Source: an uncultured Methanotrichaceae archaeon
Lineage (GTDB): Archaea > Halobacteriota > Methanosarcinia > Methanotrichales > Methanotrichaceae
DNA: 64,000 nucleotides
Assembly (NCBI GenBank): GCA_964632755.1
Contig: CAZWDT010000002.1
Coordinates: 2,279-66,278, forward strand
Direction of reading: 5' to 3'
Position 1 is the stretch's first letter; the number at the start of each line of letters is the position of its first letter. The notes beneath the pieces were generated by a model that worked only from the letters and a program-made list of their open reading frames with translations, was not told the origin of the DNA and made no database searches. Below are positions 26,958 to 60,086 of the stretch, piece by piece. A program made the position numbers and the translations under genes.

Positions 26958-27905
26958 ATGTATAAGGGGAGGAGGATCTGTGCTGTCGTTCCAGCCTTCA
27001 ACGAGGAGCGGCTCATAGAGAGGACGCTTTGCTCGATGCCGGATCTGGTCGACAGGACATACGTCGTCGACGACGGATCCTCGGATGGGACGGCTGGACT
27101 CGCGCTCTCAATGGCCGAGGTGGACGAGCGGATCCAATTGATCGCCCATGATCGCAATATGGGCGTAGGTGCCGCTATTGCGAGCGGATATAAGGCGGCT
27201 CTTGCCGGTGGCATGGATATCGCCGTCGTGATGGCTGGCGACGACCAGATGGATCCCGCGGCGATGACATCCCTCCTCGATCCCATTGTGGGGGGAAGGG
27301 TCGACTACTCCAAGGGAAACCGCCTGTTCAGCCGGGAGTACTGGCAGGGCATGAGCAGATGGCGCTTCGTCGGAAATGCCATGCTCACCTTTCTGACCAA
27401 GATCTCCTCGGGATACTGGGATCTGATGGACCCTCAAAACGGCTACACAGCGATCAGCCGCCGCGCGTTAGAGAGCATCGACGTGGACTCATTATACCCA
27501 GGATACGGCTACTGCAACGACCTCCTCGTCAAGCTGAACGTCTATGGCTTTCGGGCTGTCGACGTGGTCATTCCTGCAAGGTATGGGGATGAGAAGTCAA
27601 AGATCAAATACCGAATGTACATACCCAAGGTATCGCTCCTCCTTTTATGCGACTTCTTCTGGAGGCTGAAGGTCAAGTACATATGCATGGACTTTCATCC
27701 CCTCGTCCTCTTCTACATCCTGGGCGTGGTGCTCGTTCCTCTAGGAATGCTGGTTGCCATATACTCCATCTACTACAAGTTCGTGCTCGGAGGCTCTCTC
27801 TTCATAAGGGGCGTCCTCTCGTTTCTCATACTGATACTCGGGATGCAGTTCCTCTTCTTTGCCATGCTCTTCGATATGCAGGACAACAATCGCGAGGAGC
27901 GATGA
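26958..27905 (+). CDS. family 2 glycosyltransferase (dolichyl-phosphate hexose synthase-like) with a C-terminal membrane anchor
   Basis: 315 aa. VVPAFNEE, VVDDGSSDGT and the AGDDQMDP (DxD-like) motif are followed by two C-terminal TM helices. Confidence 0.85.
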   Translation: MYKGRRICAVVPAFNEERLIERTLCSMPDLVDRTYVVDDGSSDGTAGLALSMAEVDERIQLIAHDRNMGVGAAIASGYKAALAGGMDIAVVMAGDDQMDPAAMTSLLDPIVGGRVDYSKGNRLFSREYWQGMSRWRFVGNAMLTFLTKISSGYWDLMDPQNGYTAISRRALESIDVDSLYPGYGYCNDLLVKLNVYGFRAVDVVIPARYGDEKSKIKYRMYIPKVSLLLLCDFFWRLKVKYICMDFHPLVLFYILGVVLVPLGMLVAIYSIYYKFVLGGSLFIRGVLSFLILILGMQFLFFAMLFDMQDNNREER

Positions 27906-28954
27906 GGATACTGATCGATACGGGCCACCCGGCCCATGTCCATCTCTTCAAGAACTTCATCTGGGAGATGGAGCGGCGCGGGCATCGGATAAGGGTCACT
28001 GCGAGAGATAAGGAGGTGACGCTTCAATTGCTCTCTGCCTATGGCATCCCCCATCTGCCGATAGGCAGAGCCAGCCATAGGGGATACGGCCTCCTTCGGG
28101 AGTGGATTGAAAGGGATTTGCTGATCTACAGGGAGGCGAGGAGGTTTCGGCCGGACTGCCTCATAGGCGTCCTAAATCCAGCCGTTGCCCATTCGAGCAA
28201 GCTTATTGGCCGAAAGTCCCTGATATTCACCGACACAGAGCCTGAGGCCGTGGGCTTTCCGCTCGCAGATATGCTGACCCTTCCATTCGCTGACGTGATC
28301 CTTGCCCCAACATCTGTGAGGCACGACTACGGCAGGAGGGCTGTGCGGGTGAAAAGCTATAAGGAGCTCGCCTACCTTCACCCCGACAACTTCCGCCCGG
28401 ATGAGGGGGTGGTGAGGGATCTTGGCCTCTCTCCCGACGGGTACGTCATTCTCCGCTTCATCAGCTGGAATTCCTACCACGACAGGGGCCGGAATGGCCT
28501 CTCGATCGAGGGCAAGAGAAGGCTTGTGGAGGAGATCGGAAGGCATTCGAGGGTCCTCATCTCCTCCGAGTCGCCGCTTCCCCGGGACCTCGAACGCTTC
28601 CGCCTCGAAATCTCCCCGGAGAAGCTGCACCATCTCCTCTTCTATGCGAAGATGCTCGTCTGCGATTCTCAGACGATGGCAACCGAGGCCGGGGTGCTCG
28701 GATGCCCGGTTATCAGATGCAACTCCTTCGTGGGCCGAAGGGATATGGGAAACTTCATCGAGCTGGAGGAGAAGTACGAACTCATCATGAACTGCAGGGA
28801 GGAAGGAGAGGCGCTTGAAAAGGCGCTCGACCTGGTAGCAACCCCTGATATCAAGTCCATCTGGCAGGAGCGAAGAAAGAGGTGCTTGAGGGACAAGATT
28901 GACCTATCTCGATTCATGGTAGATCTTGTGGAAGAGCTCCCTTTTGGGAGATGA
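27902..28954 (+). CDS. DUF354-family protein (glycosyltransferase/epimerase-like fold)
   Basis: I use the internal ATG at 27902 (MRILIDTGHPAHVHLFKNFIWEMERRGH...), which is the typical DUF354 N-terminus and overlaps the GT2 stop by 4 nt. The longer track ORF from 27647 runs through the GT2 coding region. Confidence 0.65.
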   Translation: MRILIDTGHPAHVHLFKNFIWEMERRGHRIRVTARDKEVTLQLLSAYGIPHLPIGRASHRGYGLLREWIERDLLIYREARRFRPDCLIGVLNPAVAHSSKLIGRKSLIFTDTEPEAVGFPLADMLTLPFADVILAPTSVRHDYGRRAVRVKSYKELAYLHPDNFRPDEGVVRDLGLSPDGYVILRFISWNSYHDRGRNGLSIEGKRRLVEEIGRHSRVLISSESPLPRDLERFRLEISPEKLHHLLFYAKMLVCDSQTMATEAGVLGCPVIRCNSFVGRRDMGNFIELEEKYELIMNCREEGEALEKALDLVATPDIKSIWQERRKRCLRDKIDLSRFMVDLVEELPFGR

Positions 28955-28969
28955 GGGCGGCAGATCGCG

Positions 28970-30016
28970 GTGATCGATATTCATGAAGCGTTGATGGGGA
29001 AAAGCCGTCTTTGGGATCAGTTCACTAGGAGGAAGGAGTATCGCTCCTTGCGGCATGACGAGCACGGGCGCTACATCCCCGACAGGGACGATCTCGACTG
29101 CCTCACAGACCCTGCGGTCTCCAGGTATCTGCAGCAGTTGGGCTATTTCCCCGAGTATCCGGAAGGAGAGGGCTTTGCTCTCTGCCTGACACATGACGTG
29201 GACGATATCTATCCGCCTGCAAGCCATATGCTCGCCTCTCTTCCTTATCTCATCGGCAGGGGAGAGCTCGACTGGCTTAGGCTCTCTCTCCTCTGGAGAT
29301 GGAAGGGAAGAATGACCAGCCCTTACCGCAACTTCATGGATATCATCGACCTCGAGGATGCATACGATGCCAAGTCAACCTTCTTCTTCCTCTCGACGGA
29401 GAGGGATGTTCGCAGGTTCAGGTACGATATCGAGGAGCTGGAGGCGGATCTGGGCTCCATTATCGATAGGGGCTGGAGCGTTGGCCTCCATGGCGGATAC
29501 TATGCCTACGACCGCCTGGAAGACCTGATGAGCGAGAAGGCGCGACTGGAGGGGAGCCTCGGCCAGAAGGTCCTTGGCTATCGGGGCCATTATCTGAGGT
29601 TCGAGGTTCCGCGGACCTGGAAGCTGCTAGAGGAAGCGGACTTCTCTTACGACAGCACATTCGGCTACGGCCGCCATGCAGGTTTCAGGAATCAGATGTG
29701 CCATCCATATATCCCCTACAACCTGGACGAGGAAAGATCGATCGACATCATGGAGATCCCCTTGAACCTGGCGGACATGGCCCTCTTCGGCCTTGGGATG
29801 GGAAAGGCGTGGGATGCGATAAAGGCGCTTATCGATGTCGTCGAGGTGAATAGAGGCGTAATGACGGTGCTCTGGCACAACAACATGTTCTCATCTCCCT
29901 TTCGGAGGGATTACCTTCGGCTTTATCGGAAGCTGCTCGACTACGGCAGGCGAAAGGAAGCCTGGATCACGTCGTCGGATGAGGTTTGGAGGTGGTTCGA
30001 GCATGGCAATCTATGA
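28970..30016 (+). CDS. polysaccharide deacetylase-like protein
   Basis: 348 aa. LCLTHDVDDIY, FFFLSTER and VGLHGGYYAYD resemble NodB/CE4-type deacetylase motifs. The start is a GTG; an alternative ATG lies at 28994. Confidence 0.55.
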   Translation: MIDIHEALMGKSRLWDQFTRRKEYRSLRHDEHGRYIPDRDDLDCLTDPAVSRYLQQLGYFPEYPEGEGFALCLTHDVDDIYPPASHMLASLPYLIGRGELDWLRLSLLWRWKGRMTSPYRNFMDIIDLEDAYDAKSTFFFLSTERDVRRFRYDIEELEADLGSIIDRGWSVGLHGGYYAYDRLEDLMSEKARLEGSLGQKVLGYRGHYLRFEVPRTWKLLEEADFSYDSTFGYGRHAGFRNQMCHPYIPYNLDEERSIDIMEIPLNLADMALFGLGMGKAWDAIKALIDVVEVNRGVMTVLWHNNMFSSPFRRDYLRLYRKLLDYGRRKEAWITSSDEVWRWFEHGNL

Positions 30017-31022
30017 GATGCTTGTGGACAGGGATTCGTGGGAAGGCTTCGTCGAGGAGAGCCCTCATGGGATGCTATTTCACAGATGGGACTTCCTCAA
30101 AATAATCGAGAAGCATACAGGCTACGAGTTCTTGCCCATTGGAGTCGAAAGAAAAGGCCAGCTCATAGGCCTTCTACCCCTCTTCTACAGGAGGTTTGCG
30201 GCCTTGAGGGTCCTCCTCTCTCCGCCACCGCGGACGAGCGTCCCCTATCTCGGACCAGTCTTGCCAACGGATCATGACCGCTTAACGCAGTCCACGAGGG
30301 AGGCGCACTCCAAGGCCGTGGTCCAGGCACTGCTCGATGTCATGAGAACGCTCTCGCCCCATCACACGGCGATCACCTGCGTCCCCGGGATTGGCGATGT
30401 CAGGCCATTCATATGGGGCGGATTTCAGGCTGAGCCTCAGTACACATACGAGCTGGATCTAGACCGGCCCCTTCAGGAGATCTGGGATGGGATCCAATAT
30501 CGTACGAGGAAGTACATCAAGGGGAACGCGGGCAAGATAAGCCTTCGCAGGGCGAGGTCGAGGGAAGATATCGAGGCCTTCTATCGGATGGAGGCTCTGA
30601 GGTACAGGAGCCAGGGGCTCATGCCCCCTCTCGTCTCGGTGGATTATCTCGAGGATCTGGCAGATGCCTTTGGGGAGCAAATCCGCCTCTATCTCATCGA
30701 GGAAGGGGAGAATATTCTTGGGATATGGGGCGTAGTCGTCTACAAGGATCGCTACCTAACCTGGGTTGGCGGCGTCAGGCCTGGGCAGGATAGCTCCCTG
30801 CAACATGTGAACGAGTGCGCCTATTGGCTGACGATCGAGGGTGCGAGGGAGGAGGGATGCCGAGTCTATGAGCTCTCAGGCGCAAACACCCCAAGGCTCT
30901 GCCTCTTCAAGTCAAAGTTCGATCCATCTCTTTCGACCTACTTTCGGGTGCACAAGAAGACGGCATTTGGAGCCGCTGGCGAGATGCTCTACCGGAGGGT
31001 TTTGAAGAGGCGGTTTAGATGA
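30003..31022 (+). CDS. FemAB/BioF2-like GNAT-fold acyl(aminoacyl)transferase
   Basis: About 339 aa from MAIYEMLVDRDSWEGFVEESPHGMLFHRWDFLKIIE... The layout, including a C-terminal FKSKFDP motif, is typical of FemAB-type or lipid II peptide-bridge-type acetyltransferase_6 proteins. Confidence 0.5.
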   Translation: MAIYEMLVDRDSWEGFVEESPHGMLFHRWDFLKIIEKHTGYEFLPIGVERKGQLIGLLPLFYRRFAALRVLLSPPPRTSVPYLGPVLPTDHDRLTQSTREAHSKAVVQALLDVMRTLSPHHTAITCVPGIGDVRPFIWGGFQAEPQYTYELDLDRPLQEIWDGIQYRTRKYIKGNAGKISLRRARSREDIEAFYRMEALRYRSQGLMPPLVSVDYLEDLADAFGEQIRLYLIEEGENILGIWGVVVYKDRYLTWVGGVRPGQDSSLQHVNECAYWLTIEGAREEGCRVYELSGANTPRLCLFKSKFDPSLSTYFRVHKKTAFGAAGEMLYRRVLKRRFR

Positions 31023-31702
31023 AAGCTGGCCTCGATTTCCTGGCGAAGCTCGGGCTTCTGAAGAGGATCGCCATAACGAACGTGGACAACTGGGTCTACG
31101 CGAGGTGTTGGGATGGGGGGGAGCTCTTCAGGCCCCTGAATGACCAAGGCTCGCAGTTCTTTCAACGGCTCGGCAACTCCGGCGGCAAAGTGGAGAATTC
31201 GGGGCCTCGGCCTGACCTGAGCTCGCAGAGGGTAGCCGATGAGGGCGGTCTCGCCGGCCTCGACGAAGAATGGAAGCTTGGGTATCTCATGAGAAAAGGC
31301 TGCAGCGTCTATCTGGCGAGCCTAAAGGGCCGGCTTGCCGGTCGATATATCTCGTGCAATCTCGGCCAATTCAAGCCGTATTCCTACAACCGCCATAGCC
31401 TGTTCGCGGGGAGGGATGCATATTACGTCTTCTTCTGTAGGACTTACGATCCCTTTAAGGGCAGGAGCATCTTTCCTGAGATGCTCTGCCGGATCTGCAG
31501 TGACATATGGAAAGAGGATCCACGGGGAACGGTCTATATCTCGGCCGAGATCAAAAACGCGGCCTCACAGAAGGGAATCGAGAAGGCAGGCTTCGAGCGC
31601 GTCGGCCAGCTCAGATACCTTTCCGTCCTGAACCAGCCCCTGATATCCAGTCTCTCCCGGGGGGAGGATAGGGTCCTAAATGAGCCCCTGGACGGCGCCT
31701 GA
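31019..31702 (+). CDS. GNAT-like N-acetyltransferase (weak call)
   Basis: 227 aa. The C-terminal ..NAASQKGIEKAGFERVG.. resembles the GNAT motif. It overlaps the upstream gene by 4 nt. Confidence 0.4.
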   Translation: MKAGLDFLAKLGLLKRIAITNVDNWVYARCWDGGELFRPLNDQGSQFFQRLGNSGGKVENSGPRPDLSSQRVADEGGLAGLDEEWKLGYLMRKGCSVYLASLKGRLAGRYISCNLGQFKPYSYNRHSLFAGRDAYYVFFCRTYDPFKGRSIFPEMLCRICSDIWKEDPRGTVYISAEIKNAASQKGIEKAGFERVGQLRYLSVLNQPLISSLSRGEDRVLNEPLDGA

Positions 31703-33484
31703 GTCGTAGATCCTGTTATACTCGGAAAGCTGGTCCCAGAGGGGAAGATCCGGCATGTAGTAGTCGAGCAGGTTGAATAGGTTTGGATGGTCGACGAAGT
31801 CTCTCTCAAGCGAGGTGTATAGCTTCAATGGCCTTCCATCGAGCTCGCCCCCCCTGATCAGCAACAGGTCGTCGGACGAGTTCCTCAAGAATCTCATATT
31901 GGCGCGGTCGACCTCGAGCACATGTGCCTTTTTTTGGAAAGGCGAGCACTCAAGATATCTTGTAACGACATAGTCGGACATGACATACCCGCCGGCGACC
32001 TCCGGGAGATATCGAATCGATTCGACCTCGTTCTCGGTCATGTAGAACGTATAGAAGGTCCGCTTCACAAGGGGATTATCTGAGGCCGTGAAGTCGTTTG
32101 AGACCGAGAGGAAGATCATTGCCATGAAGACCACGACCAGAATGGTTCGACCATATCCCCTGGCCTTGTGGAAGAGCCCCGAGAATCCGACGGCCGAGGC
32201 CATGATGATGAATATAAATGCATATTCGCCAAACCTCATGATGTTGAAATTCTTTGCAAGATGCGTGAAAAGGAGCATCGGCCCGGGAAAGGAGACCGCG
32301 ACCAATAAGACCCCAACGAGGCATAGCATCTTGGCCCTTGTCGAGAACCTCTCATCGTTCAGTGCCCACAGTATGCCAAATACGATGAAGAGGAGCAGCG
32401 GGGCATACTGGAGATAGTTGAATAGCTCCTCAAATGGTGCATCTGCTATGGATTTGGTTGTGAGGAGTGATGGGGCGGAGGTCATCACGTTCTCCAGAAG
32501 GGCCTGCAATATATACATGGAATAATGCATCCAATATCCAAGACATAATATCAGGCTGAGGAGGAGGTACTTATAGCTGATAGTCCTCTCTTCCCCCCTT
32601 TCATATGCTATATCTAATGTGATTAGTAATGAGAATATCACCATTATAAATGGAAGTGATACTGGGTGGTACAGTATTAATACTACCGTCAGAGCCACGA
32701 TTATCATAAGCTTCATGGCGCTATCTCTAATAAAAATAAAATACAATAATACCAGCTCCAGGAACGACACAACGCTCCTGGGGATCGAGGACATGCCATA
32801 ATTGAGCACATCCGTGTAGAATATGATGAAGAGGGAGATCAACAAGGCTAGAGACCGATCCTTGAATACCGTCCTCGATACCAGGTAGGCCATCGGCACG
32901 AGAAACGCATATACCAGGCCGTTTGCAAGGAAGATCATCTTCTCCAGCGGCAATGGCGATCTCATTATGATATATAAAGCATAAACTAATATGTGCCAGA
33001 GGGGAAAGGCGCGATAGTTGTCGAATGCATCGGTCACATGGGCCGCTTCCATCAGCGTCGATATGTAGAATAAATGGGAGATCGGATCCATCCTGCCGAT
33101 GAATAGATGGTACTTCATGGTCACGCCCCAGATCAAGTTGAGGTTTAGAGCCATGATCTGGGCGAGGATGATCAGCACCCTGCCGCAAGTGGCCTCGAAT
33201 AGAAGTATCTCCATGAGGATTATGGTCGCTAGCAGCGTTATCACGAGGTAATAACCCACGGGGCGGGGTGTGTAGGTAGCCAGGATCAATGCCGATATGG
33301 CGAATAGGGGCGCGTAGGCCATTAATAATAGATTGAAGATCCTGCAATCGAGCCGCACCTTCTGGTAGGCGCTGCCACGATATATCAGGAAGAGGAGCGT
33401 TCCCGCTATCATGGGGATTGCGAGATAGCTTCCAAGGAGCGACAAGCTGTGCAGGCCGAGCAAGGGGGGAAGTAGAAGCCCCAC
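31676..33484 (-). CDS. large polytopic membrane protein with a C-terminal soluble domain (GT-C / polymerase-like; possibly DUF2206-type)
   Basis: 602 aa with at least 12 hydrophobic segments and then a roughly 150-aa hydrophilic tail. GC content is lower than in the core genes. Its tail overlaps the convergent gene at 31019..31702 by 27 nt. Confidence 0.6.
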   Translation of the reverse strand: MGLLLPPLLGLHSLSLLGSYLAIPMIAGTLLFLIYRGSAYQKVRLDCRIFNLLLMAYAPLFAISALILATYTPRPVGYYLVITLLATIILMEILLFEATCGRVLIILAQIMALNLNLIWGVTMKYHLFIGRMDPISHLFYISTLMEAAHVTDAFDNYRAFPLWHILVYALYIIMRSPLPLEKMIFLANGLVYAFLVPMAYLVSRTVFKDRSLALLISLFIIFYTDVLNYGMSSIPRSVVSFLELVLLYFIFIRDSAMKLMIIVALTVVLILYHPVSLPFIMVIFSLLITLDIAYERGEERTISYKYLLLSLILCLGYWMHYSMYILQALLENVMTSAPSLLTTKSIADAPFEELFNYLQYAPLLLFIVFGILWALNDERFSTRAKMLCLVGVLLVAVSFPGPMLLFTHLAKNFNIMRFGEYAFIFIIMASAVGFSGLFHKARGYGRTILVVVFMAMIFLSVSNDFTASDNPLVKRTFYTFYMTENEVESIRYLPEVAGGYVMSDYVVTRYLECSPFQKKAHVLEVDRANMRFLRNSSDDLLLIRGGELDGRPLKLYTSLERDFVDHPNLFNLLDYYMPDLPLWDQLSEYNRIYDSGAVQGLI

Positions 33485-33549
33485 GATCGCGACCGCGGGT
33501 ATCAGATAGAGCAGGATCCTGCTCGTGATCGAAAACCTATCATCGAGCC

Positions 33550-34818
33550 TCAGGGAAGATCAACCCCTTTCTTCGCCCTGCCGAATCTTATGGCTTCGCA
33601 TGCAACGGCTAGGCTGAGCGCGGCATATGTCAGAATCCACGCATATCCCACGCCGATTATCCCATAACTGAATATGAATATATAGCTGAGTCCGAGCAAT
33701 AAGACGAACCTCGCAAAGTTCATGAGGACGACGATCCCTGGCCGAGCCCTGATGTTCTGGATGGGGATGTATAGGCTGTAGACGGTGACGAAGAAGCTCC
33801 CGAGCACCAGGATCCTCAGGAGATCGATCGACTTGGCATACTCCGGCCCCAGAAGCCCCAATATCTCCTCGCCCCAGATATATATGATCACGACAGGGAC
33901 GAGCAGAAGGCCGAAGGTATGCGATAGCACCCGAACGATTGCCCCCCCCACATCCCTGCCATGGCTTCCCTCGACGAAGAAGGAGGTGCTGATAGCATCT
34001 GGAACTATCAATATGATGTTCGCAACTGAGAAGGCCACGTACCATCTGGCAGCCTCTATCGGTCCGAGCATGTTGAGGATCATGATCGGTAGTATGAGGG
34101 CGGGAGCTGTGTTTAGAACGCTTGCCAGGTAGTTCAGAGAGGAGAACCTCAGAGTATCCTCGAGAAACATCCTGTCGATTCTCGCGCTGAATCGAAGATT
34201 CCTGGAGATCTGGACTGCCGATACCATGAGGGCTATTATGTAGGCTGCTCCGAGCGAGAAGAAGATGCCGATGCAACCCATGCCAGCAAGGATGGGGAGG
34301 AAGGGGATGCGGGTGGAGAGAAGGAGGTTCTGGCTCAGATAAGCCCCCCCTCGGCGCTCCGAGATCATGGCGTAGCCGATTGTAAGCGTTGCCGAGTGGG
34401 CGAGGCAGATCGCTATGAAGAATATAGAGTAATCCCTTATGAAGGAGAGGTCAGGGGAGATCGTATCCACTATTGCGAGGAAGGCCAGGCTGATTACGAG
34501 AGAGAGCGCTGCAGGAATCCAGAGGCCGCTGTTGAAGACCACATCCTTATCCCTCAGAGGCATAAAGCGAATTATCGAGACGTCGGATCCGAACCTGGAT
34601 AGGATCATCACGAGCTCCAGCGAGGAGATCATGGCCGTTCCTAGCCCTACATCGGCTATCGAGTAGTACCTTGTAGCGACGCTCCAGAACAAAAGGCCGA
34701 TCGTCTTGTTAGCCGCACGGCTAAGCCCTATGAAGAAGGAGTTCCTCATTAGGGGATCGCTTACGGCGTGAGCGGGATTCCATAGCGCCTTTTGCAATGC
34801 AAGGCCTCGTCGAAGCAT
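33550..34818 (-). CDS. oligosaccharide/polysaccharide flippase (Wzx/MOP superfamily)
   Basis: 422 aa with about 12 TM segments. A likely true start is MRNSFFIGLSRAANKTIGLLFWSVATRYYS.ADVG at 34749, which is typical of polysaccharide biosynthesis protein N-termini. Confidence 0.7.
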   Translation of the reverse strand: MLRRGLALQKALWNPAHAVSDPLMRNSFFIGLSRAANKTIGLLFWSVATRYYSIADVGLGTAMISSLELVMILSRFGSDVSIIRFMPLRDKDVVFNSGLWIPAALSLVISLAFLAIVDTISPDLSFIRDYSIFFIAICLAHSATLTIGYAMISERRGGAYLSQNLLLSTRIPFLPILAGMGCIGIFFSLGAAYIIALMVSAVQISRNLRFSARIDRMFLEDTLRFSSLNYLASVLNTAPALILPIMILNMLGPIEAARWYVAFSVANIILIVPDAISTSFFVEGSHGRDVGGAIVRVLSHTFGLLLVPVVIIYIWGEEILGLLGPEYAKSIDLLRILVLGSFFVTVYSLYIPIQNIRARPGIVVLMNFARFVLLLGLSYIFIFSYGIIGVGYAWILTYAALSLAVACEAIRFGRAKKGVDLP

Positions 34819-35283: not shown

Positions 35284-37599
35284 ATGTGGAATCATCGAGC
35301 TCCTTTCATCCTTCTCTTGGCCTTGATTGTGATGGTCGGCGGGGGGAGTGGCCATGTGAGCACATCCTTCTCTGCAAGCGATGGGCAGAGCTCTGTGGGA
35401 TTCTCCACGGCCTATGGGGCCGATTGTGAGGACCGAATCGGGGACACGGCCACGTCCAGCTTCAGCTCTGGGGTGGGCCTCAGCCGTTCGATTCGGTCCT
35501 CGGGCGACCTGAACGAGTATCATTGGGTGAGAGATGGCATGAACAACTTCGCCTCAGTGAGGGCGGAGGTTGAGAACGCGGTTGACAACAAGTACCAATA
35601 TGCGATCTTCCCGGCGGAGGGCGACGTCATCTCCGGCTCCTCCGTCCAGGCACGCCATAAGCTGACCTCCTTAGAGGCCGATCGCATCTACTGCGAGGAG
35701 GCGGCATCGAACTCCGAGGGGGACTGGACGATCACATCGACGACGGTAGAAGTGGGCTCCCTTCTTGGATATTATGGCTTCTCGTGGGCAAGCTGCGACT
35801 ACGCGACGGCTTATCATTGCGCAGATCATGCAGATGGCCGCACTGTGACATTCACCTCGGAGGCCGGGGATGATAGCTCTTGCCATGCCTATAACAGGTT
35901 GACCGCGAGGGATGGCGGCGCTCCTGCAGAAGTCGACGGCTACAAGGGATCGGCGTATGCGGACACCAAGCTTGCAGCAGCCTCCATCCGGGAGGCATAT
36001 ATCGATCTCGCCGACGGCAATATGGAGATCGAGCAGTGTTCGAGCATCTTCGCCGACTCCTCGGGCTCCTGGACGACCCTTGAAGACGGCCAGATGAGCT
36101 TTGCAGGGAGGAGCTGGGCCTCCGAGGAGCCCAAGTCCGGGACGAATATAGATCGGCTTGTGGCCCAGGGCGAGGTCTGCAACCTGATTCGAGGAGGGGA
36201 CTTTCCCTGGAAGATCATGGGGATGGATGGACGGTTCGCGGGGTCCATAATTTACGTGGATGGATATCTGAACCTGATCGCAAGTGCGACGGATAATGAA
36301 CCCGTGCATTCGCTTTATATGAATCTGGAGGCGCTTGGCTCCATCCAGCAATGCATTACCGCTCAGAACGCATGGTCTCGCCTCTCGGCCAAGTCCGCTA
36401 CATCGATCGATCTTGGATATCTCACCTATTCCGTCACCTCGCGAGCCGGAGAATCGTTTGCCTTTGCCGATATGGATCTCTTCGGCGATGCCACGGAGGG
36501 GGGAATCGTCCATGAAATGTACGCCGGAGGCAAGCTTGAGTGCGAGCTGGCGGGGGCCTTCGCCTTTGGGGAATACACAGCCCTCGAAGTTCGAGATCCT
36601 GAGGCGGTTGAGAGGGCTATGGTCCAGGGTGGAACCCTCCATTACAGCGGCAGATCCGCCGACTTGCTGAGGGGAGATGAGAGGCTCGCCTTGATCGAGG
36701 TGGACCGATTGAGGGCGGATGCAATCGGCGGGGTTGTGGAGCACGAGATCGAGATGGAGAGCCCAGAGGGCGATTGGGTCTATGAGAGCTCCGCCGTCCT
36801 CTCACCCCTGGGCTGGGGCAGTCTGGAGTATGCGGGACTGGGGAAAGCTGCGGAGACGTTCGCCCTTGTGCGGGGAAGGCTATCAGCCCATGGATCGAGC
36901 GGGTCCCTCACGGCCGCCCTCGAATCCAGGAAATCGTTGAGCCCGGACTCCGCTTCCGAGCTTGCGGATTGCTCCTTTCATGCCTGGAGCCTATCGAGCG
37001 TCTCCGGGACTGGCGATCTATCTTTCGAGGGTCTGGCCCTTGCCAAGGAGGGTCTCTCAAGCGTGCGGCTTTGCGATCATCGATCGAGCGGCGATCTCGT
37101 GAGCGTGGAGCTTGGCGCAGGCGATTCCCTTGAAGGCGGTCCAGGTGCCATGGCATCTATCGAGGTTGCATCTGGGGAGGAGGGTTCGCTCGCCTTCGAG
37201 GGTCAGACGCTCGACGGCATCGACTCGATGGGAGGGCGGGCATCGATCGTCACCACCGTCGTCGATGCGTGGGGGGACGATCTGCATACCTCCTACGAGG
37301 CCTGGGGTTCAAGCGAAGCAGAGACGCCTGACAAGCGATCGCTGACGACTTCGGACGTCGAAGACGGCCATCTGGGAATTGCGGGCGGTTGCAGGGCAGC
37401 CTCCACTGGGACAACCTCTCGCCAGAGGGGCGTTCTTCAAGGCGGGAGCATATCGTCGTACGGGGAAGCCGAGGATCCCGTGGATGGCGAGATCGCGTTT
37501 GGGGGCTTCAAGGCCGTCGACAAGGATCTTCGATTCTATACGCTTGCATGGACCGATGAGGACTCGGCCCATCAGAGATGGGGATCGGTCCCCATCTGA
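35284..37599 (+). CDS. large acidic secreted/surface protein, paralog 2
   Basis: 771 aa. The signal-like MWNHRAPFILLLALIVMVGGGSG is followed by HVSTSFSASDGQSSVGFSTAYGA..DRIGD..FSSGVGLSR. It is colinear with paralog 3 for several hundred residues (e.g. YQYAIFPAEGDV, ADRIYCEEAASNSEGD, HAYNRLTARDGG, ADSSGSWT). The C-terminal motif is RFYTLAWTDED. Confidence 0.85.
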   Translation: MWNHRAPFILLLALIVMVGGGSGHVSTSFSASDGQSSVGFSTAYGADCEDRIGDTATSSFSSGVGLSRSIRSSGDLNEYHWVRDGMNNFASVRAEVENAVDNKYQYAIFPAEGDVISGSSVQARHKLTSLEADRIYCEEAASNSEGDWTITSTTVEVGSLLGYYGFSWASCDYATAYHCADHADGRTVTFTSEAGDDSSCHAYNRLTARDGGAPAEVDGYKGSAYADTKLAAASIREAYIDLADGNMEIEQCSSIFADSSGSWTTLEDGQMSFAGRSWASEEPKSGTNIDRLVAQGEVCNLIRGGDFPWKIMGMDGRFAGSIIYVDGYLNLIASATDNEPVHSLYMNLEALGSIQQCITAQNAWSRLSAKSATSIDLGYLTYSVTSRAGESFAFADMDLFGDATEGGIVHEMYAGGKLECELAGAFAFGEYTALEVRDPEAVERAMVQGGTLHYSGRSADLLRGDERLALIEVDRLRADAIGGVVEHEIEMESPEGDWVYESSAVLSPLGWGSLEYAGLGKAAETFALVRGRLSAHGSSGSLTAALESRKSLSPDSASELADCSFHAWSLSSVSGTGDLSFEGLALAKEGLSSVRLCDHRSSGDLVSVELGAGDSLEGGPGAMASIEVASGEEGSLAFEGQTLDGIDSMGGRASIVTTVVDAWGDDLHTSYEAWGSSEAETPDKRSLTTSDVEDGHLGIAGGCRAASTGTTSRQRGVLQGGSISSYGEAEDPVDGEIAFGGFKAVDKDLRFYTLAWTDEDSAHQRWGSVPI

Positions 37600-37738
37600 T
37601 ATCCTTTGGCCATGACGCTCTATCTTCCAATCTAAGGGACCTTCCGCCCCCTCCCCTCATGTGACGGGAGAGAGGCGCGGCAAATGCCAGCGCCGCCGGC
37701 CGGAACGCGAGGGAGGAGGCAAAGCAGCCTGCTACCTC

Positions 37739-38053
37739 CTATCTGGTTGAGTAGACTTCGCCCCTCACGTCGAGCTTTAAAAGAAGGACGAGCCTTTCCT
37801 CGTCGTCCACCTCGTAAACGAGCCGAAAATCGCCAAACCTCACCCTGAAGCGGTTCGTGTGGCCTTTGCACCGCTTGACGTCGAAATTTGCCTTCTTCGG
37901 ATCATCTTCTGAGATCTCTGTCGACCTTGAGAAGAGATGAGGATTTTCGGCGAGCTGATCGATCAGCTCTTTTAGGTTTTTCTGATGAGCGCGAGGAAGC
38001 CTGGTTATAACCCGTTCGACTCTCTTAGGATGCAAAAGCACATCGAAGCTCAT
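37739..38053 (-). CDS. RelE/ParE-superfamily type II toxin
   Basis: From the ATG at 38053 the protein begins MSFDVLLHPKRVERVITRL... and ends ...FRVRFGDFRLVYEVDDEERLVLLLKLDVRGEVY, the characteristic C-terminal pattern. Confidence 0.7.
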   Translation of the reverse strand: MSFDVLLHPKRVERVITRLPRAHQKNLKELIDQLAENPHLFSRSTEISEDDPKKANFDVKRCKGHTNRFRVRFGDFRLVYEVDDEERLVLLLKLDVRGEVYSTR

Positions 38054-38196
38054 AATCCGAGTTCTGCCTTGAGGCTCTTCCAAGAAACGCCCTTCTCCCT
38101 CGTCTCTTTGGCGAGCCTGTCAAGCTCTTCGGCCTCAGATTCGCTCGCTTCGACTCCTCGCTCTAATTCTTGCTTTATCCTGACGGAAGCCATCAT
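38050..38196 (-). CDS. small antitoxin-like protein (48 aa)
   Basis: My own translation reads MMASVRIKQELERGVEASESEAEELDRLAKETREKGVSWKSLKAELGL*. Its stop overlaps the toxin start (ttATGAgc). It is too short for the ORF track. Confidence 0.5.
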   Translation of the reverse strand: MMASVRIKQELERGVEASESEAEELDRLAKETREKGVSWKSLKAELGL

Positions 38197-38448
38197 GTCT
38201 TAAATCACATATAAACATCATATACCTTTCGATGATATCGCCTACTGGAGGATCCAGTAAGCTGATTAGAATCGCTTTCGAGAGAGCCCTCCAGCTGCTC
38301 GACAATGCCGTTTCCGGGGAAGCGCCCAGTACATGCGCAGACGGATCGCGACCCTTCGAAATTTTTAAGTAATAGCCTTGCGTATATATCATGATAATAG
38401 ATCTAAATCATGGCACTATTATTAATATGTCAATGGAGGTTATCTTCG

Positions 38449-41400
38449 ATGGATAAGAATTGGGTTCCAGGCGTCGTGCTGGTCGTCCTCTTGGCCCTGA
38501 CCGGCACTGCCTGGGGAGAAGTAAGTTCGTCATTCTCTGCGAGCGATGGAGAGAGCACGGTTGGCTTCTCAACGGTCTATGGAGCCGGCCTGAATGACAG
38601 GATCGCGGACTCAGGCAAGGCCGGCTTCAGCTCAGGGTTGAGCCTCAGCCGTGCGCTTCTGGCCTCGGGAAGCATGAACGAGTTTCATTATGTGGATGAC
38701 GGCACAGGCAGGGCCTCAGTGAGGGCTGAGGTTGAGAACGCCGCTGACTATCAGTATCAGTACGCGCTCTTTCCTGCGGAAGGAGATGTTGCACCGAGCG
38801 CCTACGTCCAGGCACGTCATTGGATGACGGCGCTGGATGCCGATAGGATCTACTGCGAGGAGGTTGCGACTAACGCCGAGGGCGACCTCGCCGTCACCAC
38901 GATAACAGTTGAGGATGGATCACTGCAGAACTACTTCGGACTTGCCAGGGCGACGGCTACTGACGTTACCACCTCCCACAGCGCGGATAGCGCGGAGGGC
39001 TCGATGGTGCTCATAGTCGCCGGGGCAAGGAACGATGTATCCGACCACGCCTATCACTCCCTAACGGCAAGGGATGCAGGCCTTCCTGCGATAATGACCG
39101 AATTACAAGCATCGACCTACGCCGATAACGACTTCGCAAGAGCCTCCATCGAAAGCGTCCTGGTGGATGTATCTGACGGCACGCTAAATATGGAGCAGGG
39201 ATCGAGCAACTCCATTGCCGACTCCTCCGGCTCCTGGACAAGCGTGATCGACGGTCAGCTGAGCTTCGAGGGCAAATGCTGGGCCGATGAGACGCCGAGG
39301 GCGCAAACGAGCATAGCCCGTCTCGTTGCTGACGGCTCCACCTATCACCATCTCCTGGCAGGCGACGTTCCTTGGGAGCTTCTGGGAGTTCCTGGGCGGA
39401 CCTCTCAATCCCTAACTCATGTCGATGGCCATCTCGAGCTCTCGGGCGATGCCCTGGAGAATCCGACGGGGACCTCGGTCAATGTTGCGATCTCGGCTGA
39501 GGGAAGCATCGAGCAGAACCTGTGGGGAGAGAACGCGGATGCCAACTTGAAGGCCGAGGCGGAAACGACCGTGGAACCTGGCAGCATCGAGTATACGGGA
39601 TCCGCCCAGGCGAGCAATACAAGGACCAGCGTCAAGGTCGACCTCTTGGCGGAAGCTCCGAATGGCTCGATCGACCATAGCATCGATGCTGGGGGCATGA
39701 CCGAGGAGGTTCCCGCTTATGCGGTCGACCTGGCCGAGTTATCGGCGGTTGGCACGTTTGCCTACGACTGGACAGCTCTCTCCTTAGGGACGCTGGACTA
39801 CAACGGGGAGGCCACATCGTGGAAGAGCGGCCCCGATACCATTGCCTTGGCCAAGGTGAACGAGCTCTTCGCTCATACCGACTTAGGCTCGATCTTCCAT
39901 ACCATCATGGCCGAGAATCCCGAGGGCGACTGGGCTCGCGAGGAGACGACCGTGGAAGCCTACAATAGCTTTGGCGATCTCTCCTTCTCCGGCTACGGCA
40001 AGGCATGGAAGACGGGAGCGACGGTCCAGGGCTGCCTATCTGCCTACACGCCATATGGGTATATCGGCAACACAATGGAGACGGGAACGAGCCTTTTCTC
40101 CGGATGCACAACGGCCCTGCAGGGGGGATACGACCTCTACGCATGGGATTCCAGCGATCTAAATGGAGGCGGATCGCTCGACCACACAGGTACGGCGATG
40201 GCCCGGAATGGCAAAGGCGGGATCGAGCCGTCTGGAGGAAATCCCGCGATCAGCCTTGCAGCAGTCCTCGATGCTAGGCTCGACACTCCCGGGAGCATAA
40301 ATCATTATATGGGCGCAAACGATGGAAGTGGCCACGCGGTCTATACGAGCACCGACCTGAACTCGGGAGAAGCGCAGTATCAATCCGATGGCGATGGGAT
40401 CATAGAGCCGTTGAACGGCATTCCATTGGCCGAGTATCACTACTCCGGCACGGCAAGCGCGCTTCAAGGAGGCGCCTATCTCAAGAACATGGAGACGAAT
40501 GGATATGTGACGGGCTCGGGCAGCATCAACCACCACGTATCTGCAAGTGCATGGCCTCCTGGGCTCGATGCCTATCAAGATCTCGGCTTGAGCGGCCTTG
40601 GCGGCTGCAGCTTCTACTATGCCGGCTTTGCACTTAGCTACTACAGCGCAAGCGGCGATCAGGTCTTCATCAACACGCCATACATAATCGGTTGCAGCAC
40701 TGGAGACCTCTACCACTCCCTCTCTGCCTTATCGTGGTCGTACCCATATCTGGCAACTGTGGGATCCTCGAATCTTGAAGCATCATCGAGCGTGAACGCC
40801 TATGGCTGCGCATCCATCTCTGCAAGCACTCAGGCGAGGGCAAGCAGCGTCGAGGCGAGGGTGGTCGAGGACTTGTACGTCGATGCAGGGGAGATCTACC
40901 ACTCAACAGAAGCCCATAGCAGTCCTCTGGAGGAAGTCGCGGCGCTCCAGATGGAGGGCCTCGGCAACAACGCATGGGAGAGCGACCTCAGCCAATCTGA
41001 GGAGGGCTCTGCTAACATGCACCATGCTGGATCTGCTGTGGCAAGGGATGGCCTAGCCAAGGTGCAGGTGGACGATCATACGGCATACGGGGATTATCTG
41101 ACGCTGGATGCCGGCGCAGGCGAGCTCTATGAATACGGCGGGCCTTCGGCCGGTGTCGACGTAGAGGTCGGATATGGTTGCTACAGCGATGGAACAGAGA
41201 TCGAGACTGCCACACTCACGCCATCCACTCTCTGGTATTTCGGATTGGCCCAGGACATCACCGGGTCAAGGGTTGCATCGGTCGTCACAAAGGGGCTTCT
41301 GGCCTCCGGCGATGGGATCTACGTCCAGCATTATGCCCATACTATGGACGATCTGGAGAATTGGCAGGAGTCCACAGTCGGTGTGGAGATCGATAATGGT

Positions 41401-41637
41401 GAGCTCAGCCTCCTTGGAAACGCGAAGGCTGATCTAACTAGCACCTCTGCATATCAGAGGGGAAGCGCGACTGGCGAGTACATCAACGTCCACGGCGAGG
41501 CATTGAACCCATGGGCTACGCAGTGTGACCAGGCATATGGAGGCTACACGGCCTGGTTCAAGAGCATGCGGTTCTATGATCGAGCCTGGACGAATCCAAC
41601 TGTCGCCGATGAGATGCATGGATTGATATACACATGA
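38449..41637 (+). CDS. large acidic secreted/surface protein, paralog 3
   Basis: I prefer the ATG at 38449, which is preceded by ggaggt. MDKNWVPGVVLVVLLALTGTAWG is followed by EVSSSFSASDGESTVGFSTVYGA..DRIAD..FSSGLSLSR. The C-terminal motif is RFYDRAWTNP. The track ORF starts at 38410. Confidence 0.85.
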   Translation: MDKNWVPGVVLVVLLALTGTAWGEVSSSFSASDGESTVGFSTVYGAGLNDRIADSGKAGFSSGLSLSRALLASGSMNEFHYVDDGTGRASVRAEVENAADYQYQYALFPAEGDVAPSAYVQARHWMTALDADRIYCEEVATNAEGDLAVTTITVEDGSLQNYFGLARATATDVTTSHSADSAEGSMVLIVAGARNDVSDHAYHSLTARDAGLPAIMTELQASTYADNDFARASIESVLVDVSDGTLNMEQGSSNSIADSSGSWTSVIDGQLSFEGKCWADETPRAQTSIARLVADGSTYHHLLAGDVPWELLGVPGRTSQSLTHVDGHLELSGDALENPTGTSVNVAISAEGSIEQNLWGENADANLKAEAETTVEPGSIEYTGSAQASNTRTSVKVDLLAEAPNGSIDHSIDAGGMTEEVPAYAVDLAELSAVGTFAYDWTALSLGTLDYNGEATSWKSGPDTIALAKVNELFAHTDLGSIFHTIMAENPEGDWAREETTVEAYNSFGDLSFSGYGKAWKTGATVQGCLSAYTPYGYIGNTMETGTSLFSGCTTALQGGYDLYAWDSSDLNGGGSLDHTGTAMARNGKGGIEPSGGNPAISLAAVLDARLDTPGSINHYMGANDGSGHAVYTSTDLNSGEAQYQSDGDGIIEPLNGIPLAEYHYSGTASALQGGAYLKNMETNGYVTGSGSINHHVSASAWPPGLDAYQDLGLSGLGGCSFYYAGFALSYYSASGDQVFINTPYIIGCSTGDLYHSLSALSWSYPYLATVGSSNLEASSSVNAYGCASISASTQARASSVEARVVEDLYVDAGEIYHSTEAHSSPLEEVAALQMEGLGNNAWESDLSQSEEGSANMHHAGSAVARDGLAKVQVDDHTAYGDYLTLDAGAGELYEYGGPSAGVDVEVGYGCYSDGTEIETATLTPSTLWYFGLAQDITGSRVASVVTKGLLASGDGIYVQHYAHTMDDLENWQESTVGVEIDNGELSLLGNAKADLTSTSAYQRGSATGEYINVHGEALNPWATQCDQAYGGYTAWFKSMRFYDRAWTNPTVADEMHGLIYT

Positions 41638-42356: not shown

Positions 42357-43277
42357 CTATGCTTGAAGAGGCAGGCCCCTTGGGAGGATATCTGCTAGGT
42401 ATTCCTCCCATCTATCACCATCATCCGATGCGATCTCCGATATCCAGCCGCAGCACTCGATCCAGTCCTCTTCCTCCTCCTTCGTCTCCGCGATGTTCAC
42501 CGTCCCCATGCTGAGACTAGTCTCGAATCGTCCAAGGAAGCTCTGCATCCCCTCGTGCATAAGAGAGGAGTTGGCAGCGCTCTGGCGATAGTCCAGTTGG
42601 CCCAGGCCGGTTGAGAGGGTCTGGCTCTCGTAGGCGAACCTCTTGGTTGGTTGGTAGTTCACAGCGATCACGTTATCCAGGTCCGTCGTCACAGTGACGT
42701 TGAAGCGATCCAGGCTGGAGCTGAGGAAGCGGGTTCGAGATAGAACGGGGTTGTAGTTCAAGGTCGACTTGACGCGGTCCAGGTTGTTGTCGGCAACCTC
42801 CCTATCGTTCATCCCCCAGCCCTCGTATTCAAGGGCGCGCTCGGATTCAAGGATCATCGGCCACTTCTCGAAGTAATGAAAGTAGGTGAAGGGATCGTTC
42901 GCCGCCTTGGTCGCGTTATAATCGACCGATTCGTTATCATCCGATCTGATAAACGTGCTCTCCGAGGCGGAGATCTGCCCCTCCCTCGCATAATCCCTCT
43001 CCTGAAGGCCGATCCCTTGAAAGCCGATATCGATGTAACGGGAGTGATACCCCCCCGAGGTTCGCCCGCCAGGGCTTATTTCTATCTTGGACACGGTCCC
43101 ATAAGAGTTCTCATCCAGGCTCATGTTCAACTTCATCCCCCGGCGATGTATGCTCCAGCCTTCGACGGAGGCCTGCCAGGAGTTGGCCGAGACGATTGAC
43201 GCAGCGAATATCAGCACCAAAATGAGATACAGCCACCTCTCAAAGGGATAGGCCTTCTCGATCCTCTTTCCTCTCAT
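42357..43277 (-). CDS. N-terminally anchored/secreted hypothetical protein
   Basis: 306 aa. It has one N-terminal hydrophobic segment (WLYLILVLIFAASIVSA) and an acidic Cys-containing tail (EEEEDWIECCGW). I recognise no family. Confidence 0.6.
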   Translation of the reverse strand: MRGKRIEKAYPFERWLYLILVLIFAASIVSANSWQASVEGWSIHRRGMKLNMSLDENSYGTVSKIEISPGGRTSGGYHSRYIDIGFQGIGLQERDYAREGQISASESTFIRSDDNESVDYNATKAANDPFTYFHYFEKWPMILESERALEYEGWGMNDREVADNNLDRVKSTLNYNPVLSRTRFLSSSLDRFNVTVTTDLDNVIAVNYQPTKRFAYESQTLSTGLGQLDYRQSAANSSLMHEGMQSFLGRFETSLSMGTVNIAETKEEEEDWIECCGWISEIASDDGDRWEEYLADILPRGLPLQA

Positions 43278-58928: not shown

Positions 58929-59858
58929 TTAATAAAGCGGGTAGCCGATGATCAGCCTTGCTGCTGAGATGGTCCCTGTCCACACGCGAGCGGCGGAGGT
59001 GGTGAACTGATAACCCGGGCGCGAGGCGGTTATGGCGTAGGTGCCTGATGGCAGATCCATTCCATAGTAACCGAAGGCGTTGGTGGTCTGCGTGAAGCGG
59101 CCGCCCTCGCTGCCGCTCATTCTAACGGTCACATCGGGAATCCCTGCGCCGTTTGGGTCCACCACTCGACCGGTCAGGCCGTAGATGAGCGGATAAGAGC
59201 CGGGGTTCACCGATATGGATAGGTTGTTGCTGGCCAAGGCGCCGCATACGAAAGTGTAGAGATGAGATGTCATTATCTCGGCGTAGCCCCCTTTGATCCT
59301 ATACCACCTGGGGGCGAGATAGCCCTGGAAGAGGACGTTTGTGCCGGTGTCATATAGGTTGAAGCTTCCATAGCGTCCTATCCTTGCCCAGAGGGTGTAG
59401 CCTTCGCCAAGGTTCACGCTGCCGGAGGTTACAAGGCTGCTTCCCATCTGCAGGTAAAGCTGATTGGGCTGGCGTTGGGCGCCTTCTATCGTCAGCCCTT
59501 CCTCGATCGGATCGGCCTTCTCGACGATCATGCCCGACGCGGAGGAGGGACCATAAGGATCCCAGGAGGGAATGTCCGCACTGACGCCCTCTCCGCCAGG
59601 TCCAAATGGATCCCACTCAGGCCTTCCGGCGGCGAATGGATTTAGGTAGTCGGGCACTAGCTGGTCATCGGTCGCTTGGGCAGGCGTACCCATCCAATCG
59701 TATTTGCTATCCGATATGCCCTGCACGGGCGCGGCAAACGATATGGCCAATGCCAAAACGATAGACATCGCCAGAATAACTCTCAAGAGCAAACCCCAAA
59801 TGTCATCTCCTGTAATCGACTTAAATCTTTCGATCGGGTCTCTATCGTCGTCGACCAT
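58929..59858 (-). CDS. N-terminally anchored protein with a C-terminal carboxypeptidase-regulatory-like (CarboxypepD_reg) beta-sandwich domain
   Basis: The C-terminal GLTGRVVDPNGAGIPDVTVRMSG....TTNAFGYYGMDLPSGTYAITASRPGY is diagnostic. The likely start is the ATG at 59858 (MVDDDRDP... followed by TM LLLRVILAMSIVLALAISFA). The track start is 59966. Confidence 0.7.
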   Translation of the reverse strand: MVDDDRDPIERFKSITGDDIWGLLLRVILAMSIVLALAISFAAPVQGISDSKYDWMGTPAQATDDQLVPDYLNPFAAGRPEWDPFGPGGEGVSADIPSWDPYGPSSASGMIVEKADPIEEGLTIEGAQRQPNQLYLQMGSSLVTSGSVNLGEGYTLWARIGRYGSFNLYDTGTNVLFQGYLAPRWYRIKGGYAEIMTSHLYTFVCGALASNNLSISVNPGSYPLIYGLTGRVVDPNGAGIPDVTVRMSGSEGGRFTQTTNAFGYYGMDLPSGTYAITASRPGYQFTTSAARVWTGTISAARLIIGYPLY

Positions 59859-60086
59859 TGTTCTATAACTACGGTACATACGATATATTCTATCCATACG
59901 AAAAGTACTTGTAATCCTTGGGCGAAGGGATATAAACTGGAGCCTAGCTCTTGATTGCAGGATCACAGCGCAAGATCGGCCGGATAGCCGAGTAGGGCGC
60001 TATTGTTATATCATACACCGAGAGAGAAGGGAATACAAGGCGGATTGATGGGCAATATATTAAGATTATGAGAGGTGGAGGAGATC

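Follow-up and report, generated by a model that had tools for sequence, protein, structure and literature searches.

Giant secreted proteins of an uncultured Methanotrichaceae archaeon share a family-wide N-terminal beta-hairpin module and may be associated with the sheath

What do three very large secreted proteins with shared ends and no recognisable domain do for an archaeon of a sheathed family? The question is raised by a 64,000-nucleotide stretch of DNA (the window; contig CAZWDT010000002.1 of assembly GCA_964632755.1, positions 2,279 to 66,278 of the forward strand) from an uncultured member of the Methanotrichaceae, in which a first-pass annotation had pointed out three paralogous secreted open reading frames (ORFs). 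All three are present on the + strand, as g1219 (807..4466), g771 (35284..37599) and g1062 (38449..41637), with 1219, 771 and 1062 amino acids (aa); the first two lengths had been given correctly, and the 1063 given for the third counts the stop codon. The proteins had been likened to flagellin, with conserved ends around a hypervariable middle, and had been connected with the sheath as a hypothesis. Our analysis indicates that the feature is real and that ordinary annotation does not explain these giants. The sheath hypothesis gains indirect support from gene context and one domain fusion. The likeness to flagellin did not survive, and the conserved N-terminal block, which had been taken as a special terminus of these three proteins, is a family-wide module (the N-module) that also stands ahead of unrelated C-terminal domains.

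Each giant has a single hydrophobic segment, at its N-terminus, in agreement with the signal-like start noticed earlier, and the absence of a C-terminal transmembrane segment also held, since a second hydrophobic segment was not found. The composition is as had been described, rich in Ser, Thr, Gly, Ala and Asp (together ~45-49%) and poor in Lys (1.4-1.8%), with an isoelectric point of 4.2-4.4. In g771, which is identical to database protein P0001, the predicted signal peptide covers aa 1-23 (35284..35352, +) according to hydrophobicity, a helix at residues 5-19 in the AlphaFold2 (AF2) model and the family alignment, and the alignment places the probable cleavage after G-S-G. The N-module follows at aa 24-240 (35353..36003, +; family hidden Markov model (HMM) E 4e-75, together with the AF2 model and coevolution). 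It occupies aa 24-240 of g1062 (38518..39168, +; whole-protein E 2.1e-75, N-module stretch 2.4e-72) and about aa 23-245 of g1219 (873..1541, +; E 3e-65), in both cases also by the family alignment. The longest ORF of g1062 begins at 38410, but the start at 38449 agrees with database protein P0003, which corresponds to g1062, and with the 1063-aa, 87% identical orthologue in stretch L001. The invariant block SFSASDG..VGFST..DRI.D..FS.G..LSR..G...E.H.V was reproduced by alignment, and so was the aromatic motif FY..AWT near the C-terminus of all three giants.

Judged from the sequences, the N-module is a portable element of ~220 aa directly behind a Sec-type signal peptide. When 1.84 billion representative proteins were searched exhaustively with HMMER and a profile of four sequences (E <= 1e-3), 118 clusters were obtained, six of which comprise the giants, their orthologues and a fourth paralogue, P0006. 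The remaining 112 match profile positions ~5-230 only and belong to proteins of 119-923 aa. Except in incomplete records, a hydrophobic leader comes first and the match starts no later than about residue 90. Pairwise BLAST with distant members gives ~30-40% identity and E values down to 2e-18, and the family alignment shows recurring motifs (G.L.E.H.V, Y.Y.Y.L.PGEG-like and GSL.GY.N.A.A) as well as a repeat consensus, GSLxGYxNxAxA....A.A.Q, which belongs to a hairpin unit of ~52 aa. Behind the N-module the members differ: some have extra ~52-aa hairpin repeats, eight have Chlam_PMP repeats, and others carry NosD/Beta_helix, Peptidase_S8 (subtilase), polysaccharide deacetylase or DUF2334 domains. 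Such an occurrence ahead of unrelated C-terminal domains argues for an anchoring or assembly module and not for one half of an N-to-C docking pair. Within the window, the family HMM matched g771, g1062 and g1219 only (E 3e-65 to 4e-75).

The family appears to be restricted to the Methanotrichaceae. A degenerate DNA pattern for Y.Y.Y.L.PGEG was run against 185,579 species genomes, where ~35 chance matches were expected, and 33 stretches matched. Six of these encode the N-module (in seven ORFs) and 27 do not, and all seven verified ORFs come from Methanothrix, Methanosaeta or Methanotrichaceae metagenome-assembled genomes (MAGs). On viral contigs the same pattern gave three chance matches without an N-module, and subfamily alignment found no relative there. 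Local duplication, like that of the SH sheath-protein genes, was seen in Methanothrix sp. POMEDNA-A13 (L024 5122..7309), where two N-module genes of 357 and 360 aa stand in tandem.

No known family accounts for the giants, as had been supposed. Searches of Pfam and NCBIfam gave no match at E <= 1, a profile search against all PDB sequences gave noise only, and word-indexed protein searches returned close relatives only. With Foldseek, the two AF2 models found nothing at E < 1e-3 in PDB and BFVD; the best matches had E 0.017-0.06 and a TM-score of at most 0.29. These weak analogues are long-hairpin pores and barrels (membrane attack complex, hemolysins, leukocidins, gasdermin and VDAC), and what they share with the N-module is merely the type of secondary structure.

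The AF2 model of g771, built from four sequences, is all-beta with strands of 18-25 residues and is confident at residues 66-300, and that of the N-module, from 25 sequences, reached a mean local confidence (pLDDT) of 86 and a global score (pTM) of 0.80. According to DSSP both models consist almost of strands alone, apart from the helix of the signal peptide. In the N-module model the invariant block forms three short strands (within residues 23-59), followed by long strands at 65-83, 89-109, 121-142, 148-169 and 173-195 and continuing beyond, a layout of short strands and then long antiparallel hairpins that holds for the N-module of g771 and agrees with coevolution. As independent evidence from coevolution, mean-field direct coupling analysis (DCA) was applied to 120 non-redundant N-modules (effective number of sequences, Neff, 114), and the top signals came from strands next to each other, as antiparallel ladders (z = 7.1, 6.2 and ~4-5). 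At this Neff there was no parallel diagonal at the repeat period (z < 3), no longer-range ladder and no i/i+3 strand pairing. A parallel beta-solenoid for the repeats was ruled out by the missing parallel diagonal. One face of the strands is small or hydrophobic and the other charged. Taken together, the models and couplings give a meander of 18-25-residue antiparallel beta-hairpins without a solved relative. The giants extend this theme for hundreds of residues and it returns in their shared C-terminal module: a repeat HMM built from non-giant members matches both the interior of the giants and that module (g1062 973-1020, E 2e-7).

A further property of the family is its avoidance of N-glycosylation sequons (N-x-S/T), for which the expectation was taken from shuffled sequences. 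The mature giants of the window have one sequon against 19.5 expected (ratio 0.05), with none in g771 (2.7 expected) and none in g1219 (9.6 expected), and P0002, P0004 and P0006 have none against ~18 expected. In the other 113 family members 181 sequons were observed where 692 were expected (ratio 0.26). The N-module part is more depleted (43 against 242) than the remainder of the proteins (132 against 427). Control motifs ([ST].N, N..[ST], N[ST], D.[ST] and Q.[ST]) occurred at 0.63-1.37 of expectation and therefore the depletion is specific to the sequon. Cytoplasmic proteins of the window are neutral (19 against 16) and published SH-like proteins are enriched (94 against 49). Indirectly, the depletion speaks for export of the proteins and for selection on them, and it suggests that the hairpin sheets are unable to carry glycans.

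The connection to the sheath comes from a neighbour and a fusion. SH proteins have a core of two beta-sheets, with six antiparallel strands per sheet joined by beta-arches, and variable caps (Wang et al. 2023, PMC10593813; Medvedeva et al. 2024, PMC11576556). They are multi-copy and very diverse in sequence, may have 2-3 cores and long extensions, and were assembled into a family with Foldseek and iterated HMMs (PMC11576556). Downstream of g1062 and convergent with it lies o306 (42357..43277, -), encoding a 306-aa secreted, sequon-rich (5 against 2.4 expected), SH-like protein, and this arrangement is kept in L001. Homologues of o306 adjoin N-module genes also in L052 (9095..9934, E 4e-43), where GlnA is only 50% identical to that of the window, and in L035 (5530..6435, Methanothrix sp. 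bin.308, E 1.7e-54). Genes of the o306 type thus flank N-module genes in three lineages: the window with L001, L052 and L035. The L035 member matches the viral protein vir303_00051 over its full length (BLASTP E 7e-12), both ending in ..LPC..VFNCSC, and vir303_00051 was classed as SH-like by structural classification in Medvedeva et al. 2024 (PMC11576556). The o306 family is small; its members are secreted, rich in sequons and ~300 aa long, and they end in ..W(L/I).(C)C.., some in VFNCSC; a word-indexed search with o306 returned three close clusters only. The fusion is found in P0019, an 852-aa Methanotrichaceae ORF (L034 1463..4018), in which the N-module is followed by four ~167-aa repeats, each similar to the middle of the main SH type of Methanothrix (whole-protein E 4.6e-16, best repeat 1.6e-9). 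P0029 has a similar but weak match. Neighbourhood and fusion together tie the N-module to SH proteins, yet by comparison with 22 published SH-like sequences it is not itself an SH protein.

The giants could thus be unglycosylated, sheath-associated accessory (structural) proteins that are anchored through the N-module, a function proposed here from the sequences and to which we assign a rough probability of 0.45, somewhat short of even odds. We favour anchoring because a signal peptide and module are combined with interchangeable cargo, because the family is apparently limited to the Methanotrichaceae, because of the SH neighbourhood and fusion, and because glycans are avoided. The N-module would insert or anchor the secreted protein in the proteinaceous sheath or envelope, probably by augmenting the edge of a beta-sheet or by packing face to face against SH-type subunits. 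The remainder of the protein would be displayed from this anchor, as hairpin arrays in the giants, whose cargo would be one such array of great length together with a C-terminal module specific to the genus, and in other members as enzymes or as repeats of an adhesin-like or SH-like kind. The loss of sequons would follow if tightly packed hairpin sheets do not tolerate glycans, while the neighbouring SH-like protein and the S-layer protein are rich in sequons. With such an anchor the giants would not be self-polymerising subunits of the flagellin kind.

Several observations weigh against sheath anchoring. The giants contain no SH-like segment in the comparison with SH-like sequences, the o306-type neighbour is present at only three of ~13 independent N-module loci, and the SH-like fusion at only two of 113 clusters. 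The P0019 match spans ~65 of the 241 positions of the SH-like protein and the matching stretch may be cap and not core. For vir303_00051, the assignment as SH-like is that of the published structural classification. The motif used for the taxonomic probe is present in just ~10% of the clusters, and sequon avoidance may possibly have other causes, such as passage through a narrow lattice.

Among the other explanations, the one that survives best is that the giants are adhesins or aggregation fibrils, beta-rich surface fibres for contact between filaments or with syntrophs, for example in granules, and that the N-module is a generic folding or secretion-proximal domain and plays no part specific to the sheath. 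In favour it can be said that these secreted proteins are acidic, repetitive and very large, that the repeat copy number of g1219 varies between orthologues, that the Chlamydia-PMP repeats of eight members and the beta-helices of others are typical adhesin architectures, and that long SH-fused proteins have been proposed to be adhesive by Medvedeva et al. 2024 (PMC11576556). Adhesion would leave unexplained, however, both the SH-like adjacency and fusion and the presence of the N-module on enzymes (subtilase and deacetylases). Archaeal adhesins are also usually glycosylated but this family avoids sequons, and as the giants have no C-terminal anchor, an envelope-binding part would still be required. 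We therefore hold a purely adhesive role to be possible but unlikely.

A bolder reading would make the N-module family a missed major element of the envelope, such as the spacer plugs or hoop cement, in the form of a glycan-free lattice of long hairpins that extends SH rings by sheet augmentation and in which the giants are the long-span members. We regard this as quite improbable.

More doubtful again is that the giants are true SH-type subunits, amyloid-like hoop proteins with several cores whose sequences have diverged beyond recognition. They are all-beta and come from the same sheathed archaeal family, and SH proteins are themselves multi-copy and diverse, with 2-3 cores and long extensions. 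Comparisons of the N-module HMM with 22 SH-like sequences (Supplementary Data 1, PMC11576556), also by phmmer and hhalign, did not rise above noise, though, with bit scores < 10 and probabilities <= 31% over <= 26 columns, and the giants themselves scored below zero bits. The strands of 18-25 residues stand against an estimate of ~8-10 for the SH core, based on the published spacing of the rings in M. hungatei; the couplings show consecutive hairpins only, where a beta-arch core would need i/i+3 pairing; and SH-like proteins have the reverse sequon bias. Among the 20 SH entries listed for NAY3300028191b10 (genus JAFGMR01), of 144-3080 aa, none has 771, 1062 or 1219 aa, in a comparison of lengths only. 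One of them, a '2-core' entry of 1011 aa, is ambiguous by length and could be the fourth giant paralogue. The motifs of the giants were not found in the supplementary sequences of PMC11576556, which is uninformative for the gapped alignment file among them. Length matches with the published SH table (529, 512, 584 and 537 aa) were dropped, as chance alone would give ~10 and the samples behind P0013 are different ones.

The flagellin-like proposal, in which filament or lattice subunits dock by their N- and C-termini and expose a variable core, can be judged from the paralogues and orthologues. Paralogy itself is plain (BLASTP g1062 vs g771 E 1.7e-145, g1062 vs g1219 5.5e-65, g1219 vs g771 1e-53). 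Fragment BLAST shows all three giants to be colinear over ~430 residues, and for g771 and g1062 colinearity extends to ~595 residues and returns in the last ~200, and consequently the colinear stretch described for this pair was correct while the statement that the cores then diverge completely was not. In essence, g771 is g1062 minus an insert of ~255-280 aa, which lies at about aa 595-850 of g1062 (40231..40998, +), where colinearity ends at ~593 and restarts at ~850. Private to g1219 are a unique middle (~430-850) and ~2.5 copies of a ~115-aa tandem repeat at aa 855-1137 (3369..4217, +; self-match of 915-1018 with 1030-1137, E 1.6e-21). Within this middle, aa ~430-620 (2096..2670; KNKENFMRSILKIKEDVVARAKKIDNFLNARSQYGEEYSKIGQIMELDNAG) form an insert richer in Lys and Glu that does not look beta-like and breaks the hairpin array; it has no family match and is 73-87% conserved in the orthologue P0004.

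A second species has orthologues in L001 and L047, both from the Methanotrichaceae MAG GCA_016927425.1, which defines the GTDB genus JAFGMR01; this agrees with the Methanothrix-like host that had been suggested. Because these orthologues are syntenic with the window and 64-87% identical overall, the giants are stable genes under selection. Along the proteins identity stays at about the same level, 75-92% in g771 and mostly 78-95% in g1062 with a single dip to 57%, and in g1219 it collapses in the C-terminal repeat region only, as a result of differing repeat copy number. The separate locus of g1219 has also conserved its synteny, with DUF166 and fumarase genes downstream of P0004 as in the window. 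Grouped with P0004 in its 90%-identity cluster is a 45-aa entry named 'short-chain dehydrogenase, partial [Mycobacterium sp.]', which probably got there through faulty clustering or contamination.

The C-terminal shared module covers aa 572-771 of g771 (36997..37596, +), with RFYTLAWT, and aligns with g1062 850-1060 and g1219 1122-1213; in g1062 it lies at 40996..41634 (+), with RFYDRAWT and a hairpin-repeat copy at aa 973-1020. The AF2 model of g771 has low confidence in this module, including the FY..AWT region. Docking could appeal to this common C-terminal motif and to the near-invariant residues after the signal peptide, and since the C-terminal module has the same hairpin repeat as the N-module, a head-to-tail continuation of sheets is geometrically conceivable. 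But most family members pair the N-module with entirely different C-termini, the C-terminal module is limited to the four giant paralogues of JAFGMR01 and matched by no other cluster of the 118, and the core is colinear and conserved instead of hypervariable. A helical D0/D1-like terminus or a type IV pilin-like signal is also lacking. The all-beta structure, the mostly colinear paralogues and the orthologues without a hypervariable core speak against the flagellin comparison as a whole, and docking subunits are in our opinion very unlikely. Secreted beta-hairpin pore-forming or membrane-active toxins can hardly be credited, as the weak Foldseek analogues at the top are indeed pore formers and barrels but the pore-former matches all have E >= 0.06 and a TM-score <= 0.21, the strands have one charged face in highly acidic proteins, no toxin/immunity gene context was seen, and the family is fused to surface enzymes of a housekeeping type.

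The surroundings of the giants offer some further observations. Directly upstream of g771 is a glycan-assembly cluster (26958..34818) with a GT2 glycosyltransferase, DUF354, two GNAT-type genes, a 602-aa multi-pass membrane protein without a Pfam match (31676..33484, -) and a Wzx-like flippase (33550..34818, -), a curious placement beside sequon-avoiding genes. Between g771 and g1062 lies a ParE-type toxin gene (37739..38083, -), a recent insertion, as nothing but a 53-aa ORF occupies that position in the sister species. A canonical Methanosarcinales S-layer gene is found at 60075..63497 (+), with a long N-terminal region rich in Asn, Thr and Ser, and upstream of it a 345-aa ORF (58929..59966, -) has an internal hydrophobic segment at ~aa 63-83 and a C-terminus that by eye resembles a carboxypeptidase-regulatory-like beta-sandwich. 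No shared upstream element was found for the three paralogues, whose upstream regions have only AT-rich, TATA-like sequence in common, and Rfam and tRNA scans of the window were empty.

Methanothrix ranks with the leading methane producers worldwide, and it is the sheath that controls how its filaments grow, how granules form and how contact with syntrophs is made. The composition of the sheath is disputed between MspA and SH proteins, and to our knowledge no constituent proteins have been named for the spacer plugs and hoop junctions. What is new here is an N-module family of more than 100 clusters, absent from Pfam, NCBIfam and PDB and traced to the Methanotrichaceae only, with a long-hairpin beta fold that has no solved relative. 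With its HMM and the predicted lack of glycosylation, the family offers candidates for the envelope components still missing and a way to test them, and the natural fusion of N-module and SH-like repeats in P0019 could serve as an entry point for experiments.

Compared with known systems, the likeness of the giants to flagellin or archaellin is only superficial, in that the paralogues align best at both ends; flagellin has helical conserved termini and an exposed hypervariable middle, whereas the giants are all-beta, with an ordinary signal peptide and a conserved colinear middle. Like the giants, which are putative envelope proteins, the Methanosarcinales S-layer protein (PF07752/DUF1608) of this organism is large, acidic and secreted, but it has two PF07752 domains, a C-terminal transmembrane segment and 24 sequons, and the giants have neither PF07752 (E <= 1) nor a second hydrophobic segment. 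Curli CsgA and other functional amyloids resemble the N-module family in being secreted, rich in small residues and built of a strand-turn-strand repeat with conserved G, N, A and Q. The curli unit is 22 aa long and forms a parallel beta-solenoid, in contrast to the ~52-aa antiparallel hairpins of this archaeal family, and the Pfam Curlin model did not match the giants.

MspA of Methanothrix thermoacetophila (Mthe_1069, ABK14853.1), of 575 aa and with few homologues, is a disputed component of the sheath that Dueholm et al. in 2015 reportedly described as the 'major sheath protein', and the one sheath protein of Methanothrix backed by mass spectrometry. As a secreted, beta-rich, amyloid-prone protein of the sheath fraction, narrowly distributed and free of annotated domains, it is similar to the giants, but 573 and 575 aa, the lengths of MspA and its relatives, are absent among the 118 N-module clusters, in an indirect comparison by length only. 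The closest parallel is provided by the SH proteins (M. hungatei SH/Mhun_2271; Methanothrix Mthe_0667/0668). Similarity in sequence or profile was not detected between them and the N-module, which has predicted strands of about twice the estimated SH-core length in consecutive hairpins, compared with the 2 x 6-strand beta-arch core of SH, is depleted in sequons where SH-like proteins are enriched, and sits N-terminal to other domains where the SH core instead carries a cap. Still, both are secreted, all-beta and multi-copy in the sheathed Methanotrichaceae, both combine a conserved beta module with variable extra domains, and the two are genetically linked.

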